Source of the DNA: Dickeya dadantii NCPPB 898
Lineage (GTDB): Bacteria > Pseudomonadota > Gammaproteobacteria > Enterobacterales > Enterobacteriaceae
NCBI RefSeq assembly: GCF_000406145.1
Contig: NZ_CM001976.1
Span: 3,011,337-3,043,336 of the forward strand
Reading direction: 5' to 3'
Length of the DNA stretch: 32,000 bases
A program made the position numbers and the translations under genes. This document shows positions 1-22,755 of this stretch, piece after piece (the stretch's first letter is position 1; the number at the start of each line of letters is the position of its first letter). The notes under the pieces were generated by a model. The model was not told the DNA's origin. It saw only the letters and a program-made list of their open reading frames with translations, and did not search any database.

Positions 1-1056
1 CGGATTCAGCACTTCACCACTTTTTTTCAGCACGACACTTTCCAGTAACTCACCGGGCAACTGGTGATAACGCAGTGCGTTAAAGATCGTTTTTTCAGCC
101 ACCGATACGGTATGTCTGGCTACATAATGGCGAGCCGCCGGCCGCTTACTGGCGAATGTCGACGGCAGCGACAGGAAAGGCGCGACAAAATATTCCGCAT
201 AAGGGATATCGGTGGAATAACGGATCAGCTGGCAATATAAATCACCCGGACAGCGCCGGGTCAGTTCAATCAGCCAAAAATCATCGCCATTGGCGATAAA
301 TTGCGTATGCAGCAAGCCATCACATAGCTTCAGGTCGGCGACAATACTGTTGATGCAGTCACTGACGGCATTTTTCAGCGTTTCACTCATTTGATGAGCC
401 ACACAGCTGCTATTCACCTGATAAGGGTAGACCGTGCAATATTCATCAACAAAGAACTCACAAACAATCTCGCCGTTACGAATAAACGCCGAATGGCTGT
501 GCAGCGAGCCCTGCTTGAATTCTTCTATCACCACCTGACCGCTTACCGATGCCGATGCGGCCGACTGGTAAGCCGGCAGAATATCCTGTTCGCGCTGAAC
601 CTGAGTAATACCGCGGCCACTGTAGGCATCAACCGGCTTGACCAGAATCGGATACGACAGTTGCCCCACCGATCCAATATCACGTACCGCTTTAGGAATG
701 GGCAGTCCCTTACGCTGTGCATAAGCACGAAACGCATCCTTTTTCAGCAGGATCGCCGTTGTTTCAACCGAATCGAAACCGGGCATACCCAGCGATTGCG
801 CAACCCAGGCGCCGGTTTCGTAAGAGACATCCGTCACGCCCGGCAAAATAGCCTTAATATTTTCCTTTCTGACAATGCCGAGAATGGCCTCTTTGTCCGA
901 ATAATCTTCGACAATCGACCGGGTTGCCCGGATATGACCAGGGTCACCGGGTTTGCCGCTGCACACACCAATCGCAACGCCCTGTTCCAGGCACGCTTCC
1001 AGCAGAGGCAGCGCAGAAAAACCCGCATCAAGCATTAAGGCATCTATAGTCGACAT
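1..1056 (-). CDS. ATP-grasp family ligase (partial; C-terminus lies beyond the left window edge)
   Basis: My reverse-complement translation of 1056->1 gives an uninterrupted 352-codon frame (MSTIDALMLDAGFSALPLLEACLEQGVAIGVCSGKPGDPGH...LKKSGEVLNP). It is missing from the ORF track because its stop lies outside the window. ATP-grasp-like motifs are present: YPILVKPVDAYSGRGI, GQVVIEEFKQGSLHSHSAF and FWLIELTRRCPGD. The ATG is at 1056-1054. The 215-aa plus-strand ORF at 391..1038 is its antisense shadow. Confidence 0.75.
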   Translation of the reverse strand, partial: MSTIDALMLDAGFSALPLLEACLEQGVAIGVCSGKPGDPGHIRATRSIVEDYSDKEAILGIVRKENIKAILPGVTDVSYETGAWVAQSLGMPGFDSVETTAILLKKDAFRAYAQRKGLPIPKAVRDIGSVGQLSYPILVKPVDAYSGRGITQVQREQDILPAYQSAASASVSGQVVIEEFKQGSLHSHSAFIRNGEIVCEFFVDEYCTVYPYQVNSSCVAHQMSETLKNAVSDCINSIVADLKLCDGLLHTQFIANGDDFWLIELTRRCPGDLYCQLIRYSTDIPYAEYFVAPFLSLPSTFASKRPAARHYVARHTVSVAEKTIFNALRYHQLPGELLESVVLKKSGEVLNP

Positions 1057-1083
1057 ATCCATTCTCTGTTACCAATATTTTCT

Positions 1084-1142: not shown

Positions 1143-2270
1143 TTAACGCCCGTTTTCACTCAACGTGCGCCCAATAATCTCGATGATGCGATCCTGATCG
1201 CCGCTTTCCAGACCTGGATAAATGGGCAGACACAGCACAGCGTTGGCGATGTCGGTCGCCACCGGTAAATTCTCGGCGCCCGCGCTGCCGAGACCACGGT
1301 ACATCGGAAAACTGCTGATCAGCGGGTAGAAATACCGGCGTGACATGATGCCGTGCTCTTTCAGAGCGTCATAAAGTTTCTCGCGCACATCGAACGAGTA
1401 ATCATTAACAAAAAGCGGGAAGTAGGCATAATTCCAGTCGATGGAATCCGGCACGCTCAGCGTCCTGATGCTATTAATCTGAGCCAACCCATCACGGTAG
1501 TAGCGATAAATACGTTTTCTGTCTTCCAGCGCCTGATCGATATAATTCAGTTGCAACAGGCCAAACGCCGCCTGCACTTCGTTCATTTTGCCGTTAATAC
1601 CGGGAGCGACCACAGTGGTTTCATCCGCAAAGCCGAAGTTTTTCAGATAATCGATCCGTTTCTTCATTTTTGCGTCGGGGCAAATAATGGCGCCGCCTTC
1701 AATGGTGTTGAACACCTTGGTCGCGTGGAAACTCAGAATTGAGAGATCGCCATAATTCAGAATGCTGTCGCCATCCTTTTTCACGCCAAAAGAGTGTGCG
1801 GCGTCATAAATCACCTTCAGGCCGTAAACATCCGCAATATTCTGGATTCGATCGACATCGCAAGGAATACCATAACAGTGGACAGGCAGAATAGCGGACG
1901 TGAGCGGCGTAATCGCTTCTTCAATCTTTTTAGGATCCAGATTACAGGTAACCGGATCGATATCGACAAAAACTGGCTTGAGGTTATTCCACAATAACGA
2001 GTGAGAGGTCGCCACAAACGAATAAGGCGTGGTGATGACTTCGCCGGTAATACGCAACGCCTGCAGCGCCGTCAGCAGCGCCAGCGTGCCGTTCGTGAAC
2101 AGACACAGATGTTTAACGCCCAGATATTCAGCCAGAGCGTGCTCAAGTTGCTGGTGAAAAGGCCCACCGTTCGTCAGATATTTGTTATCCCATATCTTTT
2201 CCAGATAGGGCGTAAATTCATCAAGCGGAGGCAGTAAAGGGCTCGTTACGTAGATGTTCTTACTCATCAT
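1143..2270 (-). CDS. DegT/DnrJ/EryC1/StrS-family PLP-dependent NDP-sugar aminotransferase (375 aa)
   Basis: The ORF 1143..2312 translation is typical of sugar aminotransferases: MSKNIYVTSPLLPPLDEF...NGGPFHQQLE...CLFTNGTLALLTALQAL...DAAHSFG...SILSFHATKVFNTIEGGAI (HATK should hold the PLP-lysine). I trimmed the start to the ATGATG at 2270, which follows AAGGA at 7 nt. The upstream 14 codons (MLLYVWRHKRKDRS) look non-native. Confidence 0.85.
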   Translation of the reverse strand: MMSKNIYVTSPLLPPLDEFTPYLEKIWDNKYLTNGGPFHQQLEHALAEYLGVKHLCLFTNGTLALLTALQALRITGEVITTPYSFVATSHSLLWNNLKPVFVDIDPVTCNLDPKKIEEAITPLTSAILPVHCYGIPCDVDRIQNIADVYGLKVIYDAAHSFGVKKDGDSILNYGDLSILSFHATKVFNTIEGGAIICPDAKMKKRIDYLKNFGFADETTVVAPGINGKMNEVQAAFGLLQLNYIDQALEDRKRIYRYYRDGLAQINSIRTLSVPDSIDWNYAYFPLFVNDYSFDVREKLYDALKEHGIMSRRYFYPLISSFPMYRGLGSAGAENLPVATDIANAVLCLPIYPGLESGDQDRIIEIIGRTLSENGR

Positions 2271-2395: not shown

Positions 2396-5300
2396 TTATG
2401 ATTCATTTTCCCAGTCAATGCTGAATGTTCTGGGCTCTTTTCCTTCGCAATAAATCTGCCACGCGTTGCGTATGGCGCGTTCGAAATAAATAGACGGCGA
2501 TAAAACGGAATTCATTCTGGCGGCGATGCGTCCACGAATTCCGGCGCGCACGTCGCTGAGTTTTTCCAGTGATTGACGCCAGTACAGCGCCTTTTGTACA
2601 AACTCGTCTTCTTCCGTCGCGATAAAGTCATCCAACCCCAGAATACGCATGGTGACGCTGCCTTGACGTGAAGCGATGGACTCGCCTTCACGAGTCAGCA
2701 CCGGTACGCCCATCCAGGCGGCGTGACTCACCGTGGTCCCACCGGTATACGGATAGGTATCCAGCAGCAGATCTACTTCGCGGTGCATTCCCAGATATTC
2801 TTTCAAGCCGGTCCGCATGCGGAAAGACAGTTGCTCTTCCTTCACCCCGAACTCGACCAACCGGTCACGGAAGTAGTCGATGGTTTCCTGACCCGTCATG
2901 TACCCCATGATTAGCCGGGAATCCGGCATCGCCGTCAGAACCTTCGCCCACAGGGCCAGGGTTTCGTCAGTAATTTTCTGCGGACGATTGAAACTGGCAA
3001 ACGTCAAATAACCGTTTTTCAATGCCGGCAGTTCATTCACTTCCGGGCTATCTTTGACCGGCTCAAAATATTTCACCGAAGGCAAATAAATGATTTTTTC
3101 CGTCAGATACGGATCGAGCGCACCGCCCTGGATGTAATGCAAATCAAGCAGGATGTAATCAACGCTCTTCATACCGGTGGTTCCGGGATAACCGATCCAG
3201 GTCATCTGGATCGGGGCGGGTTTCAGCGCCAGCGCCGGCAACCGGTTATAAGCGGTATGTCCGGACAGATCGATCAGAATGTCGATTTCGTCCTTATTGA
3301 TGAGCGTCGCCAATTCGAGGTCGCCCATCTTGTCGACATCATGCCAGCCAGCCGCGGTCTGTTTTAGGCTCTCGGCCTTTTCATCGTTACGTTGAAAACT
3401 TGAGTAGGCGTAAAGCGAGAACGCGCCTCGATCAAGCGAATTCCAGATAGGTTCAAGGAAATTCGTCACCGGATGGTTGCCAAAGTCGCCGGAAACGAAA
3501 CCAATGCGTAGCGGGCGTTGAGCGGCTTTATCAAGGGAGTAGGCAAACTGGCAGTGATGGCGCTCGGCCGCTTCTTCCACGCGCTTACCGAATAACAGGT
3601 GTTCCTGAAACAGCGCCTGCGGCGTCACATTGACATCGTGAGACAGCCCCAGCAGCAGGTTGCTGTACAGATGAAACGCCTGGGGCATCAGCTCAATGGT
3701 TTTACGATGGTACTGAATGGCGTCTTTTCGCCCCAGGTTATGGCAAACCATCCCCATATGGCTGATAAAATTGGGGTTTTCCGGCTCAATCTGCAGAGCC
3801 TTCTCCATACATTTAAACGCTGAATCCAGGTTATGGGTGAGATTCAACAAAATTGCCAGCGTGTCCCACGCCAGCCCTTTTTGCTTATCACAACGCAAGA
3901 CTTTTCTGGTCAGCGCCATGCCCTGATGCAGTTCGTTCTTTTTCCAGAAGCACACCGCCAGATCAATATAAAAATCCCAGTTGAAAGGCATCAGCGCAAT
4001 TGCTCTGGTAATGATGCTCAGCGCGCCATCAAAATCGCCGGTACGGACATAGGTATTCACGAAGGGATACCAGACCCACAGGTTGTCGGGATAGGTACTG
4101 ATAATCTCTTCCGCTTTTGTTCTGACATCGGCAAACTGCCCCAGTGTGGTTAGCCGATCAATCTCTTCGTACACCTTCCGGTTGAGCGTGTTTCTATCCT
4201 GCGGCTTACTCTTTTTATGCGCCGACGATTTTTCCGGTTCAACAAAGCCGCCCGCACTGGTTTCACTGATGTACATCACCAGCGACTGAATATAAACAGC
4301 AACCTGCCCGGCATCGGCCTCTACGATCGCTTCCTGCAAGTAGTCTCGCCACGCGCGCGGCGTTCCCCATATCACGCCTTTATTACGCAGCGCCCAAAGC
4401 TGGCTGTAAAACGCCTTATCCTTGTTCAGAGTCGATGATGACAGCTGTTGCAGGAACCGCCGCTCGTCACTATCAAGCGACACCGGTTCATGCCAGAAAT
4501 TGAATGCCAGATCGGTCGTGGCAATACCGGGCAACCCAGTCAGCGTCTTATGTCGACTGTTCCGGTAAGTACAATTCCCCATCCGCGTGTAAATGCCATC
4601 GATCCCTTTCACAAACAGGTTCTTTAACGCATCCAGCACATTCTGCCGATGATTCTCAGCTTCCTTTTCCGGCAGCAGGGTATTAAAGACCAATTGATCC
4701 AGAGTCAAACTGGCCGGCCAGGCTTCCCCCAACGCATCCAGAATACTTAATACCACCGGGTTTTCCGTGCTGATGGTCTCACCGTTACCGGATCGGTGGG
4801 CATTCAGCGTAGCGCCATTGCTTGCCGTAACACGTTGAAAATTACCCGCCCAGTTGAAATCCGCCAGCCGGGAAAGCTCGGGGGCCGGCAGCACCGCCTC
4901 CGCCCTCGCCTGTGGAACCAGCATACTGAACCGCTGGGAGCGGTTAACGGCGAAATCGAGGTATTGCTGGCGCAGATAGGTGGTATTTTCAGGGCAAATC
5001 GTCTCGTGCAAGCGCGAAACCTGATCGCCGTAATGCCCCGCCAGTTCTGTGTAGGCGCGAACATCGCCGACATAGGCAAAGCCGGTTTGGGTAATCTGTG
5101 AATAGAAATCAACGAAATAACAAGGCTGGTTCAGCCCCTGCAAATAATGCAGCGCAAAATCCACATCGGACTGTTTTTCCGCTTGTTCAATAAAGGTTTT
5201 CAGCGCCGCATTCTGGGGATTATCCGGGGATGTTCCCAACGACAGATAGGTCAGCATCGCGCGGGCGCTGGTTTGCGCCGTCTTTTCATCATTAGCGAGG

Positions 5301-5848
5301 CTGCTGTGAAGCTGAATAGCGTCCCGCAGGATTTCACCGGTCTTCCACCCTGGATAGGTGTTGTAGCAATAGCAGACGATGCCTTCCGCGGTCAGGTGCT
5401 CACTACAGAATCGCAGCAGCGCTTCCCGCGTCTCGCCACCGATAAGACTGAACAGGCCGTGGATAATGATGTAATCGAATTTTCCAGGATCGCAAGCCAG
5501 CAGAGATTCGAGGTCCAGGGCAAATAACGCGATATTGTCCAGTTCCAACTGCTTTATCAGAGCACTGCCTTTTTCAATTTGCTCCGCATCAAGATCGACC
5601 CCGACAGACTGCGACTGTGGATTAGCCAGCGCAAAAGGCAGCAAATTGCCGCCATCCTTGCACCCAATCTCAAGCACGCGTGCATTTTCCGGCGCAACCG
5701 ACTTGATGCCATAAAGATGTGCGGTAGCTTGCAGATGGAAAGGCGCGGTGTAAGGAACGGGAGGGGCCATCGAACTCAATGGAATTTTACCAGTATCGTC
5801 ACCCAGGTCGTCATTATTCGCTAAAGGTTGTGTATCTGGCATGGTCAC
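2396..5848 (-). CDS. 1150-aa multidomain protein: N-terminal class I SAM-methyltransferase, an extension resembling the methyltransferase regulatory domain, TPR-like repeats, and a C-terminal GT41 (O-GlcNAc transferase/SPINDLY-like) glycosyltransferase; putative flagellin-modifying enzyme
   Basis: SAM motif I VLEIGCKDGG is at aa 58-67 (nt 5648-5677), with DYIIIHGLF at about aa 125. CYNTYPGW is at about aa 161-168, as in MT-regulatory-domain proteins. A helical repeat region spans about aa 560-735 (e.g. GDFDGALSIITRAIALMP, LDSAFKCMEKALQIEPENP). The C-terminus matches bacterial SPINDLY-type GT41 proteins: PLRIGFVSGDFGNHPVTNFLEPIW...DILIDLSGHT...VDLLLDTYPYTGGTTVSHAAWMGVPVLT. The GTG start at 5848 lies 8 nt after AGGA (AAGGAAA); an in-frame ATG is at 5842. 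Confidence 0.8.
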   Translation of the reverse strand: MTMPDTQPLANNDDLGDDTGKIPLSSMAPPVPYTAPFHLQATAHLYGIKSVAPENARVLEIGCKDGGNLLPFALANPQSQSVGVDLDAEQIEKGSALIKQLELDNIALFALDLESLLACDPGKFDYIIIHGLFSLIGGETREALLRFCSEHLTAEGIVCYCYNTYPGWKTGEILRDAIQLHSSLANDEKTAQTSARAMLTYLSLGTSPDNPQNAALKTFIEQAEKQSDVDFALHYLQGLNQPCYFVDFYSQITQTGFAYVGDVRAYTELAGHYGDQVSRLHETICPENTTYLRQQYLDFAVNRSQRFSMLVPQARAEAVLPAPELSRLADFNWAGNFQRVTASNGATLNAHRSGNGETISTENPVVLSILDALGEAWPASLTLDQLVFNTLLPEKEAENHRQNVLDALKNLFVKGIDGIYTRMGNCTYRNSRHKTLTGLPGIATTDLAFNFWHEPVSLDSDERRFLQQLSSSTLNKDKAFYSQLWALRNKGVIWGTPRAWRDYLQEAIVEADAGQVAVYIQSLVMYISETSAGGFVEPEKSSAHKKSKPQDRNTLNRKVYEEIDRLTTLGQFADVRTKAEEIISTYPDNLWVWYPFVNTYVRTGDFDGALSIITRAIALMPFNWDFYIDLAVCFWKKNELHQGMALTRKVLRCDKQKGLAWDTLAILLNLTHNLDSAFKCMEKALQIEPENPNFISHMGMVCHNLGRKDAIQYHRKTIELMPQAFHLYSNLLLGLSHDVNVTPQALFQEHLLFGKRVEEAAERHHCQFAYSLDKAAQRPLRIGFVSGDFGNHPVTNFLEPIWNSLDRGAFSLYAYSSFQRNDEKAESLKQTAAGWHDVDKMGDLELATLINKDEIDILIDLSGHTAYNRLPALALKPAPIQMTWIGYPGTTGMKSVDYILLDLHYIQGGALDPYLTEKIIYLPSVKYFEPVKDSPEVNELPALKNGYLTFASFNRPQKITDETLALWAKVLTAMPDSRLIMGYMTGQETIDYFRDRLVEFGVKEEQLSFRMRTGLKEYLGMHREVDLLLDTYPYTGGTTVSHAAWMGVPVLTREGESIASRQGSVTMRILGLDDFIATEEDEFVQKALYWRQSLEKLSDVRAGIRGRIAARMNSVLSPSIYFERAIRNAWQIYCEGKEPRTFSIDWENES

Positions 5849-6010: not shown

Positions 6011-6046
6011 AAATAAAAAACCAACCCCGAAGGGTTGGCTTTTTTA
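6011..6046 (-). terminator. Rho-independent terminator of fliC (bidirectional in form)
   Basis: The minus-strand RNA reads GCCAACCC-UUCG-GGGUUGG-UUUUUUAUUUU. This is a 7-bp GC-rich stem (6021-6027 / 6032-6038) with a C(UUCG)G tetraloop and a U-tract, 30 nt after the fliC stop. An A-run upstream and a T-run downstream make it symmetric. Confidence 0.85.
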
Positions 6047-6075
6047 ATTCGCTATTGCGACTGCGTAAACAGGGA

Positions 6076-6918
6076 TTACTGCAGCAGTTTCAGAACAGTC
6101 TGCGGTACCTGGTTAGCCTGAGCCAGTACAGAAGTACCAGCCTGCTGCAGAATCTGCGCACGGCTCATGTTGGATACTTCGGTCGCGTAATCAGCATCCT
6201 GGATACGGCTACGTGCGTTGCTCAGGTTGTTGATGGTGTTGCTCAGGTTGTCAATGGTAGACTGGAAGCGGTTCAGCGTCGCACCGATGTTCGCTTTAGC
6301 GGTGTTGATGGTCTGCAGAGCAGTATCAATCGCAGAAACCAGTGCAGTAGCGCCTGCAGCTGTAGACACGTCGGTATTGGTAGTGGTGATACCCAGGCCA
6401 CCAGAAGTAGCGTTGATCAGTGCAGAGCTACCCACAGAGATGGCGTCGTTAGCAGTGGTGCCTGCGCCAACCTGAATGTTGAAGCCGGTAGCGGTAACAG
6501 TACCGTCCAGCAGCGCTTTGCCGTTGAAGTTTGCGCTGGCGGCAACACGGTTGATTTCATCAACACGACGGTTAATTTCAGTCTGGATTGCAGTACGGTC
6601 GTTAGTACCGTTAGTGTCGTTCGCTGCCTGTACGGCCAGCTCACGGATACGCTGCAGGTTGTCGTTGATGGTATCCAGGTTACCTTCAGCGGTCTGAACC
6701 AGAGACACACCGTCGTTAGCGTTTTTAGAAGCCTGAGTCAGACCTTTGATCTGAGCGGTCATACCGTTAACGATACCAGAACCCGCTGCGTTGTCTTTGG
6801 CGCTGTTGATAGCCAGGCCAGAGGACAGACGTTCGATAGCAGTCTGCAGGGAAGATTGAGATTTGTTCAGGTTGGTCTGGGCCAACAGCGACATACTGTT
6901 AGTATTAATGACTGCCAT
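6076..6918 (-). CDS. fliC: Flagellin (280 aa, short form with a minimal variable domain)
   Basis: The N-terminus MAVINTNSMSLLAQTNLNKSQSSLQTAIERLSSGL.INSAKD.AAG and the C-terminus RSRIQDADYATEVSNMSRAQILQQAGTSVLAQANQVPQTVLKLLQ are canonical flagellin D0/D1 sequence. An AAGGAA SD precedes the ATG, and a sigma-28 promoter lies upstream. Confidence 0.97.
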   Translation of the reverse strand: MAVINTNSMSLLAQTNLNKSQSSLQTAIERLSSGLAINSAKDNAAGSGIVNGMTAQIKGLTQASKNANDGVSLVQTAEGNLDTINDNLQRIRELAVQAANDTNGTNDRTAIQTEINRRVDEINRVAASANFNGKALLDGTVTATGFNIQVGAGTTANDAISVGSSALINATSGGLGITTTNTDVSTAAGATALVSAIDTALQTINTAKANIGATLNRFQSTIDNLSNTINNLSNARSRIQDADYATEVSNMSRAQILQQAGTSVLAQANQVPQTVLKLLQ

Positions 6919-6987
6919 AATTATATTCCTTTCATCTCTATTAATGGGGATGGGCTGTTGCCCCCGGTGTCATCACCGTCACTAACT

Positions 6988-7014
6988 GTATCGGCCGGTG
7001 TAAAACAACCTTTA
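6988..7014 (-). promoter_or_regulatory. Sigma-28 (FliA) class 3 promoter of fliC
   Basis: The minus strand reads TAAAGGTT-N11-GCCGATAC. The consensus is TAAAGTTT-N11-GCCGATAA, so each half matches 7/8. It lies about 70 nt upstream of the fliC ATG. Confidence 0.85.
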
Positions 7015-7497
7015 GTTTTTTTTGAAATTTTCGTATCCCCCGGGAAAAACCAGTCAGGCCGGCACCTGCGGTAAGTAGAATAAAGGAAAGACGGTAATTT
7101 GCAGGGAATGTGATAACCACTCATACCGCATTTAACAGCCTGCTATAAAATGTCATTGCCGCTTCATTCTCCCTCTATACTTTATAAGGTATCTTGCGTA
7201 TCAACCTAGTCATGCTGGCATGGGCGCGTTAAGGTTTCATCGTACGCAAACCCAAATATCAGTCAGTAACACAGTCTGTGGTCAGGACATACGTCGCCAG
7301 TGAGTAGATATGATGTCATCGGCTTCTAACATGCAGCCAGCAGCGATACACTCAATGCCGGCGGCAAGCCGAAAACACTCGATTGCAACTGTTGCTCCCG
7401 GCACATACGCATCGTGACGGGATAAAATCCGCAGACAGTTCATGCGCGATGAAAATCAGGGATGGTAACGATTACGCTGAAATTTACATTACGTCTG

Positions 7498-9948: not shown

Positions 9949-9990
9949 AAAAAAATCAGGGTGAATAACCATGGTCATTCACCCTTTTCT
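9949..9990. terminator. Bidirectional rho-independent terminator between convergent fliT and fliE
   Basis: AGGGTGAAT (9958-9966) pairs with ATTCACCCT (9977-9985), a perfect 9 bp. An inner AC/GT pairing sits around a CATG loop. An A7 run (9949-9955) lies on the left and TTTTCT on the right, so a U-tract follows the stem on either strand. Confidence 0.7.
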
Positions 9991-10074
9991 CGAAGTGCTT
10001 GCCGAATACAACGATCAATAAAAACACAGCAATCAATAAAAGCAGATATAATAAAACAGCGTTTTGCTTGCCGA

Positions 10075-10389
10075 CTATATCGTCATATTCATGACTTCCT
10101 GGTAAGCCGAGACCAGTTTATTACGCACCTGAACCCCCATTTGCAAAGCAATCGAGGCCTTCTGGTTGTCAACCATGACGTCATTCAGAGCGACCCCAGG
10201 TTTGCCCAACGTGAATGCTTCGGCTTGCGTCTGAGCCTGCGTCCTGGTTTCGTTGATTTTCTCAAGCGCCGCTTTCAGCTCGCTGGCAAAACCAGCCTGG
10301 GACGCAACGTTGGAATCCGGTCCACCGGCTGCTTTGGTTGCGGTAATCTGCATCTGCTGCAATACCGCGTCGATACCCTGAATAGACAT
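10075..10389 (-). CDS. fliE: Flagellar hook-basal body complex protein FliE (104 aa)
   Basis: MSIQGIDAVLQQMQ...FASELKAALEKINETRTQAQTQAEAFTLGKPGVALNDVMVDNQKASIALQMGVQVRNKLVSAYQEVMNMTI is near-colinear with E. coli FliE. A GAGGA SD lies 7 nt upstream. Confidence 0.96.
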   Translation of the reverse strand: MSIQGIDAVLQQMQITATKAAGGPDSNVASQAGFASELKAALEKINETRTQAQTQAEAFTLGKPGVALNDVMVDNQKASIALQMGVQVRNKLVSAYQEVMNMTI

Positions 10390-10721
10390 GCCTGCTTCCT
10401 CAACTAAAGATTGAGAATGATATAAAAACCAAATAAATGATAAACATATGTATATGCAGCAAACGAACTACGGCATCAGCACCGTTTATTTCACATACAT
10501 CTCTTTACAGGTTCAATACGCTACCATATCCATAAGGTAGTAAATCGTATAAATGACATTAAAAATGCCAGCTTATCGACCCATCAAATTTTGCGTAACG
10601 GAAAATAATGGCATGCCGGTAAATGTAGGCGATGAGTTTTTATGATTGCGCAATCAGGGAGTTCTGTTTTGTTACGTTACAACGTTACCCATATCGTTCA
10701 GCAACCAGGCAGAGATAGAGT
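10390..10721. promoter_or_regulatory. Divergent fliE / fliF promoter region (FlhD4C2-dependent class 2 promoters expected)
   Basis: This is a 332-bp AT-rich divergent intergenic region. In E. coli/Salmonella both operons are class 2 (established knowledge). I found only partial FlhDC half-site resemblance (AACGGAAAATAATGG at 10597-10611) and could not position the boxes with confidence. Confidence 0.45.
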
Positions 10722-21736: not shown

Positions 21737-21772
21737 AAAAAAAAGCATGTCATCTTATGAAGGATGACATGC
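21737..21772 (-). terminator. Rho-independent terminator of flgL
   Basis: GCATGTCATC (21745-21754) pairs with GATGACATGC (21763-21772), a perfect 10-bp stem with an 8-nt loop. On the minus strand a T8 run (21737-21744) follows it. It lies about 55 nt after the flgL stop. Confidence 0.8.
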
Positions 21773-21825
21773 CAAAAAGAATACGCCCGGTTTAAGCGTA
21801 TCCAAATACGGTTCGCTATTCCGTT

Positions 21826-22755
21826 TTATTTATTCAGTTGGAACAGCGAAAGACTCTGCATATCGCTAAAAGCCTTGTATGACGCCTGCAGAGACTGTTG
21901 TTGCATCATATACGTGGAGATGGTCGCAACCATATCGATGTCAACCAAGTCGCTCAGTGTCTGTTTGTTCGCCGTAGTACGATCGGTACCAATGCTATCC
22001 AGCGTATCGATTTCCTGCAGCTGAACGCCCAACGTTGCCTGAGCCGACGACACGTTGGTCAGCGCGTTCTTGAGCTCCTGACTGGCTGCGTTGATAGTAG
22101 CGAGATTCGCGTCTTTGACTGCGGTGGTGGCGCCTTCCAGTGGGGTTTCCAGCGCGCTAATCACGCTATCCAGCGCACCGAAGATATCCGCGGTGCCGCC
22201 CGCGTTGTTAAATACGTCGGAACCGATATGCCCGACAGTCATGACACGGTCAGCATCCACCTGCTGGGAAATGGCTTGATTACCACCCACATAGCTAACG
22301 GTGCCGGACGCATTGGTAGTAAACGGCTGAGAGTCGGTCTTGTAGCCGCCGAAAACATAACTGCCATTGCCATCCGTACTGTTAGCCAGATTGAGCAACT
22401 GAGATTTCAGGCCGCGCAGAGACGTTGCGATAAGCTGGCGATCGTTATCATTCTTTGTACCGTCGGCACTTAACAGCGTCGTGCTGGCAGAGGTCAATGC
22501 GGTTGCCACGTTGGTCAGCACGGACAGCTCGCTATTCATACCATTTTCGGCAAAAGTACGCGCCAGCGCATACTGCTCATTCTGAGCCTGCGCCTGGTTA
22601 ACCATAACCGCCTTGGACGCCGCTATCGGATCATCAGAAGGGGTGAGCACACGAGTATTGCTGGCAAGTTGCTGCCCCGTCTTGCTAAAGGCTGATAATC
22701 CATCTGTGACGCCTTGCATACTCTGCTGAAAAATAATACTGGTACTCAGTCGCAT
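21826..22755 (-). CDS. flgL: Flagellar hook-filament junction protein FlgL (HAP3), 309 aa
   Basis: MRLSTSIIFQQSMQGV......QLASNTRVLTPSDDPIAASKAVMVNQAQAQNEQY and the C-terminus SDLVDIDMVATISTYMMQQQSLQASYKAFSDMQSLSLFQ match FlgL. An AAGGA SD is present. Confidence 0.94.
   Translation of the reverse strand: MRLSTSIIFQQSMQGVTDGLSAFSKTGQQLASNTRVLTPSDDPIAASKAVMVNQAQAQNEQYALARTFAENGMNSELSVLTNVATALTSASTTLLSADGTKNDNDRQLIATSLRGLKSQLLNLANSTDGNGSYVFGGYKTDSQPFTTNASGTVSYVGGNQAISQQVDADRVMTVGHIGSDVFNNAGGTADIFGALDSVISALETPLEGATTAVKDANLATINAASQELKNALTNVSSAQATLGVQLQEIDTLDSIGTDRTTANKQTLSDLVDIDMVATISTYMMQQQSLQASYKAFSDMQSLSLFQLNK

Follow-up and report, generated by a model that had tools for sequence, protein, structure and literature searches.

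A methyltransferase-TPR-GT41 fusion encoded next to fliC in Dickeya dadantii, with an N-terminal half resembling protein-lysine methyltransferases

What can a single polypeptide that carries both a methyltransferase and a glycosyltransferase do to the flagellin encoded beside it? The question is raised by the flagellin glycosylation island of Dickeya dadantii NCPPB 898, which we analysed in a stretch of 32,000 nucleotides (contig NZ_CM001976.1, positions 3,011,337 to 3,043,336 of the forward strand; hereafter the window). The gene concerned is an open reading frame (ORF) on the minus strand (2396..5848), directly downstream of the flagellin gene fliC, that joins a methyltransferase module, tetratricopeptide repeats (TPRs) and a glycosyltransferase domain of family GT41. 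Flagellin is the main bacterial pattern sensed by the immunity of plants through FLS2 and of animals through TLR5, and its decoration affects the fitness of D. dadantii in plants (PMC6637903). The gene shares 99.2% nucleotide identity with the Dda3937_03424 locus of strain 3937, so that both the fusion and the part it plays in flagellin glycosylation are already known from published work. The interest that remains lies in the N-terminal half, which, judging from sequence matches and a predicted structure, looks like a complete and apparently active protein-lysine methyltransferase (PKMT), and in the stand-alone relatives of this half that are linked to flagellin genes. The PKMT-like identity was not recognised in the two papers that deal with these genes (PMC6637903 and PMC4875605), nor was the module connected there with the stand-alone methylase 'SmtA'.

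The ORF, an orthologue of Dda3937_03424, runs uninterrupted over 1150 codons with its stop codon at 2396-2398, as the original prediction had stated; the strand, which that prediction did not give, is minus. Translation starts at a GTG codon preceded 8 nt upstream by an AAGGA Shine-Dalgarno sequence, while annotation in the NCBI style uses an ATG two codons further in and yields 1148 aa. Comparison with Pfam agreed with the four domains proposed before and with their boundaries: Methyltransf_12/25 at aa 58-157, MethyTransf_Reg (PF10119) at aa 234-311 (E 4e-15), TPR families at about aa 585-730, and Glyco_transf_41 (PF13844) from aa 757 onwards, with a score of 145.2 bits (cut-off 25; E 2.6e-42). 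Built on a 92-sequence alignment, the AlphaFold2 model of the full-length protein reached a pLDDT of 89.3 and a pTM of 0.88, and its sole internal disordered stretch is the interdomain linker at aa 540-551 (4196..4231, minus strand; pLDDT below 50). The same full-length architecture is shared by more than 90 proteins of about 1080-1200 aa, with identities down to 27%, from Dickeya, Pectobacterium, Brenneria, Cronobacter, Citrobacter koseri, Mangrovibacter and the Alcaligenaceae, and the frame is uninterrupted in five other D. dadantii contigs. The protein is thus a genuine fusion, and on this comparative sequence evidence the ORF is neither a chance reading frame nor an assembly artefact.

The N-terminal half carries the main finding. 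The module extends over aa 25-540 (4229..5776, minus strand) and comprises SAM-binding (SAM, S-adenosylmethionine, also AdoMet), dimerisation-like, middle and C-terminal helical subdomains. Its class I SAM-binding Rossmann core (aa 55-165; 5354..5686, minus strand) contains the motif I residues E60-x-G62-C-x-x-G66-G67-N68, and the 'methyltransferase regulatory domain' PF10119 (aa 234-311; 4916..5149, minus strand) contains the invariant motif Q295-Y-L-D298...R303. A phmmer search of the PDB matched this half to Rickettsia PKMT1 (5dnk, E 3e-40 over aa 23-424) and PKMT2 (5doo, E 6e-39). As GT41 matches fill the Foldseek list of the full-length model, the N-terminal half was also modelled separately (aa 1-540, pLDDT 80.3). 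The top eight structural matches of this second model are all PKMT1 or PKMT2 (E 1e-28, about 530 aligned columns, TM 0.59-0.66), followed by the Mycobacterium tuberculosis H3K79 lysine methyltransferase Rv2067c (6e-14), and generic methyltransferases appear only at 5e-8. The SAM-methyltransferase fold that had been proposed is accordingly backed by Pfam, by PDB sequence matches and by Foldseek. The prediction of an extension with a regulatory domain was right about PF10119 and wrong in treating it as a mere appendage, since aa 25-540 form a complete PKMT-type module; the full-length PKMT match means that the 'regulatory domain' is simply part of the PKMT fold.

The residues of the module point in the same direction. 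In PKMT1, Asp102 and His146 contact AdoMet through hydrogen bonds (PMC11784438). These two positions align with D85 and H130 of the Dickeya protein, which do not vary among 68 stand-alone relatives or in any of the Dickeya fusions. Of the 58 columns that are invariant in the stand-alone relatives, the window protein has lost none, and the Dickeya fusion clade as a whole retains all SAM-binding and family-invariant residues. The C-terminal winged helix PF21782 was not reported by Pfam in the fused copy at E <= 0.01; the predicted fold aligns through this region.

A search with the N-terminal half retrieved many stand-alone relatives of 530-565 aa, about 40% identical and provided with PF21782. 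With 1,970 clusters at E < 1e-30 the family is large, and fusions make up about one third of the best 150 matches. In all five loci that we inspected, from Pectobacterium parmentieri, Alcaligenes faecalis, Thauera aromatica, Castellaniella defragrans and Bordetella bronchialis, the stand-alone gene directly adjoins a flagellin gene. None of these five loci has a called GT41 gene. Within the 6-8 kb covered on each side, four of them are also free of called glycosyltransferase genes of every other kind, and the Castellaniella locus has a GT2 gene about 5 kb away. The flagellins of P. parmentieri and A. faecalis contain 16-17 lysines. In P. parmentieri the order is fliC-methyltransferase-fliA, which is the slot occupied by FliB in Salmonella, and this stand-alone gene is evidently the 'SmtA/FMI2' of De Maayer & Cowan. 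Both arrangements occur together in three Achromobacter loci (L007, L010 and L015), where fliC lies between a stand-alone PKMT-like gene and a methyltransferase-TPR-GT41 fusion, and the methyltransferase motifs of these fused copies have drifted (H130 to T, E60 to A and W168 to A). The presence of stand-alone methyltransferases beside flagellin genes, mostly in the absence of a glycosyltransferase, favours methylation of flagellin over methylation of a sugar. We tentatively propose, with a chance that falls a little short of even, that PKMT-type enzymes, without relation to FliB, make up a second widespread family that methylates the flagellin protein; in Dickeya and its relatives the module would have become joined to the flagellin O-glycosyltransferase, so that one polypeptide methylates lysines of, and glycosylates, the same secreted substrate before export.

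The C-terminal half consists of about six TPR helix pairs (aa 557-737; 3638..4180, minus strand), delimited from the AlphaFold2 model and Pfam and presumed to be the flagellin-docking module, followed by a SPY/OGT-like catalytic domain of the GT-B fold (aa 743-1147; 2408..3622, minus strand), supported by Pfam, PDB sequence matches and Foldseek. The best match in the PDB sequence search is Arabidopsis SPINDLY (SPY, 7y4i; E 7e-73 over aa 607-1140), accompanied by T. terrenum OGT, human OGT (hOGT) and XcOGT, with E values from 1e-73 to 1e-43 for the whole set including SPY. Foldseek with the full-length model returned SPY (E 1e-36), T. terrenum OGT (5djs; TMt 0.91, root-mean-square deviation 2.2 A), hOGT and XcOGT. 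The GT41 fold foreseen in the original prediction is therefore upheld, both by a profile score above the cut-off and by structural matches to SPY and OGT. Residue roles and SPY-hOGT equivalences were taken from the paper on the SPY structure (PMC9715652), and the residues were mapped with the alignment from the PDB sequence search. The paper describes an essential phosphate-binding lysine (SPY K665, hOGT K842) and a D-x3-H motif (SPY D491/H495, hOGT D554/H558). The lysine corresponds to K958, a position held by K in 74 of the 92 fusions and by R in the other 18, and the D-x3-H pair to D788/H792, each of which is invariant in 92 of 92. SPY Y744 and T748/T749 correspond to Y1034 and T1038/T1039, invariant or conservatively replaced across the same set. 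The predicted donor site is lined by D788/H792, N954-R955..K958, Y1034 and T1038-T1039, and this half is very probably an O-glycosyltransferase, as far as its residues and relatives indicate.

The genomic neighbourhood of GT41 genes was scanned with one genome per species, giving 79 species loci. In 37 of the 76 assessable loci the GT41 gene is followed within 400 nt by a VioA-like aminotransferase gene (58-73% identical), and in 43 of the 79 a flagellin gene lies no more than 10 kb away. The majority of the loci (Paraburkholderia, Burkholderia, Massilia, Janthinobacterium and others) encode a TPR-GT41 protein without methyltransferase. The conserved core of the system is therefore TPR-GT41 plus aminotransferase. 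This core, and the placement of the aminotransferase in NCBIfam nearest to dTDP-4-keto-6-deoxyglucose aminotransferases, point to a 4-amino-4,6-dideoxyhexose as the probable donor. The scan also brought to light duplicated genes: two tandem methyltransferase-TPR-GT41 copies lie downstream of fliC in Candidatus Symbiopectobacterium (L001, 8707-15036), and tandem pairs of GT41 genes occur in several betaproteobacterial loci (L016, L021, L040, L043, L064 and others).

Two published studies bear directly on the gene. De Maayer & Cowan (2016; PMC4875605) surveyed the inserts between fliC and fliA in 2000 Enterobacteriaceae and reported flagellin glycosylation islands in 194 strains, among them 44 of 44 Dickeya, with an AdoMet methyltransferase domain on nearly all of the GT41 proteins of these islands. 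Royet (2018; PMC6637903) described the disruption of Dda3937_03424, after which FliC had a mass of 28,890 Da (mutant A4277) instead of the 32,170 Da of the wild type, a loss of about 3.3 kDa; in a mutant of the second glycosyltransferase of the island the mass was 31,034 Da. The A4277 mutant showed reduced virulence and the same motility, and the gene is needed both to modify FliC and for fitness in planta. The position of our gene directly downstream of fliC and the FliC mass drop in the mutant of the 99%-identical gene support the role in flagellin modification that had been suggested from the window. The primers of that study match the start of the ORF exactly, and at the other end they reach a stop codon that is absent from the window. 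The sole AgeI site of the amplified fragment falls at codon ~170, so that the published cassette sits inside the Rossmann core of the methyltransferase. As to AgeI sites generally, ACCGGT occurs 21 times in the window against 6.2 expected from shuffles, and 7 of these are within the ORF; the use of Thr-Gly codon pairs (ACC GGT) may be the cause of this excess.

The masses allow some arithmetic. The calculated mass of FliC without the initiator Met is 28,701 Da, and the FliC of A4277 exceeds it by 189 Da, which would equal about 13.5 methyl groups. Residual methylation was considered as an explanation and ruled out, given that the cassette disrupts the Rossmann core; more likely causes are the calibration of the matrix-assisted laser desorption/ionisation (MALDI) measurement, a retained Met (+57 Da) or some other factor. 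The difference between the wild type and the second-glycosyltransferase mutant, (32,170 - 31,034)/162.14 = 7.0, would fit seven hexoses added by the second glycosyltransferase. The mass of the first sugar depends on the baseline taken (306 or 333 Da per site), and we draw no conclusion from it.

Taken together, these data lead us to a proposal whose chances we put slightly above even: the protein would be a cytoplasmic two-module enzyme for the flagellin encoded upstream, with the GT41 half O-glycosylating and the PKMT half lysine-methylating FliC. The O-linkage, the type of donor sugar and the methylation of FliC lysines are all points that we infer. The TPRs would dock FliC in its unfolded or FliS-bound form, and the GT41 domain would perform the priming step, in which Ser/Thr residues of the short exposed central segment of FliC receive their first sugar from a nucleotide donor. 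That sugar would most likely be a dTDP-activated, N-acylated 4-amino-4,6-dideoxyhexose, made by the VioA-like aminotransferase together with the products of the downstream ATP-grasp, oxidoreductase and FkbM-methyltransferase genes, and the second glycosyltransferase of the island (the Dda3937_03419 orthologue) would then extend the glycan. The PKMT half would methylate the epsilon-amines of FliC lysines before export, acting as a functional analogue of FliB to which it is unrelated.

Against this proposal stand other explanations of the gene, of its glycosyl linkage and of its N-terminal half. That a sequencing error in the NCPPB 898 assembly might have merged two neighbouring genes into the long ORF is suggested by the 3937 reference (CP002038), which has two ORFs at this place, of 386-416 aa and 738 aa. 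The split was traced to a single nucleotide: in the reference (CP002038.1; L091, 13015) the TTT run at codons 411-412 (window 4615-4617, minus strand) is one T short, and the deletion leaves a methyltransferase ORF and a TPR-GT41 ORF that overlap in GTGA. With the frame intact in the five other D. dadantii contigs, more than 90 homologues of full length and an AlphaFold model that is confident across the junction region, the joining of two genes by error is hardly credible. The 1-nt deletion could reflect an error of sequencing or be genuine in 3937. If it is real, the GT41 part works unfused; 3937 may then carry a broken copy, and the existing mass data would be silent on methylation. For the linkage, the original prediction had left open an HMW1C/NGT-like N-glycosyltransferase that would modify Asn in NX(S/T) sequons, a family that GT41 does include, and had counted five such sequons in FliC. 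Seven are present (N18, N100, N103, N169, N224, N231 and N250). The protein scores 17.6 bits with the NGT model NF049992, far below its cut-off of 1000, and therefore O-linkage is the likely mode; its match to SPY/OGT reaches E 1e-73, no NGT or HMW1C structure is among its PDB sequence matches, and the flagellin glycosylation systems with which it was compared are O-linked. We therefore regard an N-linked sugar as very improbable, and the earlier statement that either linkage type is possible is not supported.

More weight attaches to the question of what the N-terminal half does. The original prediction had it methylate either the sugar or flagellin itself; the complete PKMT-type module shifts the odds toward flagellin, and the sugar persists as the strongest competitor, unlikely on balance though worth taking seriously. 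Here the module would methylate the glycan (at O or N, on the sugar or on an acyl or aminoacyl substituent, as nucleotide sugar or after transfer) and so couple tailoring to transfer. Several observations speak for this or weigh against the proposal of lysine methylation. In the survey of De Maayer & Cowan (PMC4875605) the fused methyltransferase domains were classed with glycan methylation. Flagellin glycans commonly carry methyl groups, examples being the 2-O-methyl-viosamine derivative made through VioM in P. syringae and N,N-dimethylthreonine in P. aeruginosa. The ATP-grasp ligase of the island could attach an amine-bearing substituent, which a lysine-type N-methyltransferase might accept. 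FliC has just seven lysines (19, 41, 58, 65, 134, 208 and 277), none of them in the Ser/Thr-rich region of aa 135-207, and our literature search found neither a biochemical or mass-spectrometric sign of methyl-lysine in Dickeya flagellin nor any report of methylated flagellin in these taxa. Because the cassette at codon ~170 lies upstream of everything else, the published masses cannot separate the methyltransferase and glycosyltransferase activities. In favour of lysine methylation, flagellins encoded beside a PKMT-like module have a median lysine content of 3.2-3.4% versus 1.6% beside a TPR-GT41 gene without methyltransferase (Mann-Whitney p 2e-5; same trend among high-GC loci), but this contrast is confounded by phylogeny. 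Finally, the Achromobacter and Cronobacter fusions have drifted at key positions (H130 to T/R, W168 to A/N and E60 to A), which suggests that the module may be non-catalytic in some fusions. This last point connects with a further, improbable explanation, in which the PKMT-like half is catalytically silent and serves the GT41 half as a scaffold for dimerisation or for holding the substrate. PKMTs do have a dimerisation domain (PMC11784438) and GT41 enzymes are dimeric (PMC9715652), residues that never vary in the stand-alone enzymes are gone from several fusion clades, TPR-GT41 proteins without methyltransferase are the rule in Burkholderiaceae and Oxalobacteraceae, and flagellin is still glycosylated in strain 3937, whose reference has separate ORFs. 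What speaks against a silent module in Dickeya is that this clade has kept every SAM-binding and family-invariant residue, which would be unexpected for a pseudo-enzyme. Methylation of the glycan is countered by the three closest structural relatives, all of them protein-lysine methyltransferases that match over the whole 530-residue multi-domain fold, by the stand-alone homologues, beside flagellin in five of five loci and with no glycosyltransferase gene in the flanks of four, and by the FkbM-family methyltransferase that the island already has as a separate gene for sugars. We thus retain lysine methylation of FliC as the preferred reading of the N-terminal half.

The presumed substrate is encoded at 6076..6918 on the minus strand. 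FliC of the window has 280 aa, lacks domains D2 and D3, is identical to FliC of D. dadantii 3937 (ADM99043) and contains 15 Ser/Thr residues in aa 141-190. The gene is followed by an intrinsic terminator hairpin (6015..6044, minus strand; 13-bp stem and a T run). As this terminator lies 5' of the methyltransferase-TPR-GT41 gene, the latter needs a transcription start of its own within the following 167 nt; inspection by eye of the region upstream revealed no convincing match to a sigma-28 promoter, and the automated scan covered sigma-70 only. In strain 3937, an IS200/IS605-type element of about 700 bp with a Y1 transposase of 152 aa is located right after the fliC terminator (L091, 10907-11614; corresponding to window ~6013), and this element is missing from the window.

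Directly downstream of the fusion gene is the DegT/VioA-like nucleotide-sugar 4-aminotransferase gene (1143..2270, minus strand), whose pairing with GT41 is conserved in Beta- and Gammaproteobacteria. Its ORF reaches 2312 (389 codons from the first ATG), most annotations give 374-375 aa, and the true start is likely the Met at 2270 (MMSKNIY...). The ATP-grasp-like gene that follows (1..1062, minus strand), an orthologue of Dda3937_03422, is truncated by the left end of the window. The order of the island is GT41, aminotransferase, ATP-grasp, oxidoreductase, FkbM methyltransferase and second glycosyltransferase, the same as in 3937. The remaining genes of the window are fliDST, fliE, fliF-R and flgL-flgB. 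There is almost certainly no gene behind two plus-strand ORFs without family match, of which one (9961-10407) is antisense to fliE (10075-10389, minus strand) and the other (6055-7074) to fliC. We also noted an 86-aa ORF without family match between fliR and flgL (21764-22024, plus strand). In another D. dadantii draft assembly (L087, 7902-9355) fliD was called as two ORFs of 350 and 105 aa, which suggests a frameshift or an assembly error.

If the preferred reading is true, flagellar lysine methylation is no longer a speciality of Salmonella and FliB, and a second enzyme family takes part in it, whose relatives in Rickettsia protect OmpB against ubiquitin. In that case the coordination of two modifications on one substrate could be studied in Dickeya as a natural system.

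Comparison with known systems places the protein among several groups of enzymes. The nearest is its orthologue Dda3937_03424, the same gene in the same island order and beside an identical FliC; there it is split and has the IS200-type element upstream, whereas in the window it is intact. Dedicated flagellin O-glycosyltransferases encoded near fliC, such as FlmQ, FlmG, FgtA and Fgt1/Fgt2/VioT, resemble the Dickeya gene in this respect, and none of them has a PKMT module; Caulobacter FlmG, a 596-aa protein of TPRs and a GT-B domain, transfers pseudaminic acid. In a Burkholderia locus (L071), a TPR-GT41 gene whose product is 41% identical in the catalytic domain lies between a flagellin gene and a VioA-like aminotransferase gene, and by gene position only it is probably of the B. 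cenocepacia FlmQ type. The large Pseudomonas glycosyltransferase FgtA, mentioned in the original prediction as a possible homologue, is not one: FgtA of P. aeruginosa PAO1 (PA1091) combines a GT2 domain with a CD0244-like phosphotransferase (PMC11833859), and the window protein has no GT2 match. As regards P. syringae Fgt1/Fgt2/VioT, the 127 significant matches of the window protein include no Pseudomonas protein. With SPINDLY and the human and bacterial OGTs (7y4i, 8dtf, 5djs, 3pe3, 2vsn) the C-terminal half shares TPRs followed by a two-lobe GT-B domain, the essential lysine and the D-x3-H motif, and by analogy it would likewise transfer a single sugar to Ser/Thr of a protein within the cytoplasm. 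It differs from them in having only about six TPRs, a 540-aa N-terminal methyltransferase and one secreted substrate, and in a donor that is probably a dTDP-aminodideoxyhexose instead of UDP-GlcNAc or GDP-fucose.

For the N-terminal half, the flagellin lysine N-methylase FliB of Salmonella is alike in the proposed chemistry and substrate, and it shares the fliC-fliA slot with the stand-alone gene of P. parmentieri. FliB, however, is a [4Fe-4S] enzyme (PMC8598068), whereas the Dickeya module is a class I SAM methyltransferase that has no homology to it, and the FliB family is absent from the Pfam and NCBIfam matches of the window protein. The closest counterparts are instead Rickettsia PKMT1 and PKMT2, which act on OmpB, and Acinetobacter KmtA, which acts on AtaA. 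The Dickeya module shares with them the multi-domain fold, the Asp and His that contact SAM, and PF10119. The Rickettsia and Acinetobacter enzymes are cytoplasmic and modify proteins destined for the surface, a role that the Dickeya enzyme may share by analogy; the Dickeya module is distinguished from them by its fusion to TPR-GT41 and by its linkage to flagellin instead of autotransporters.

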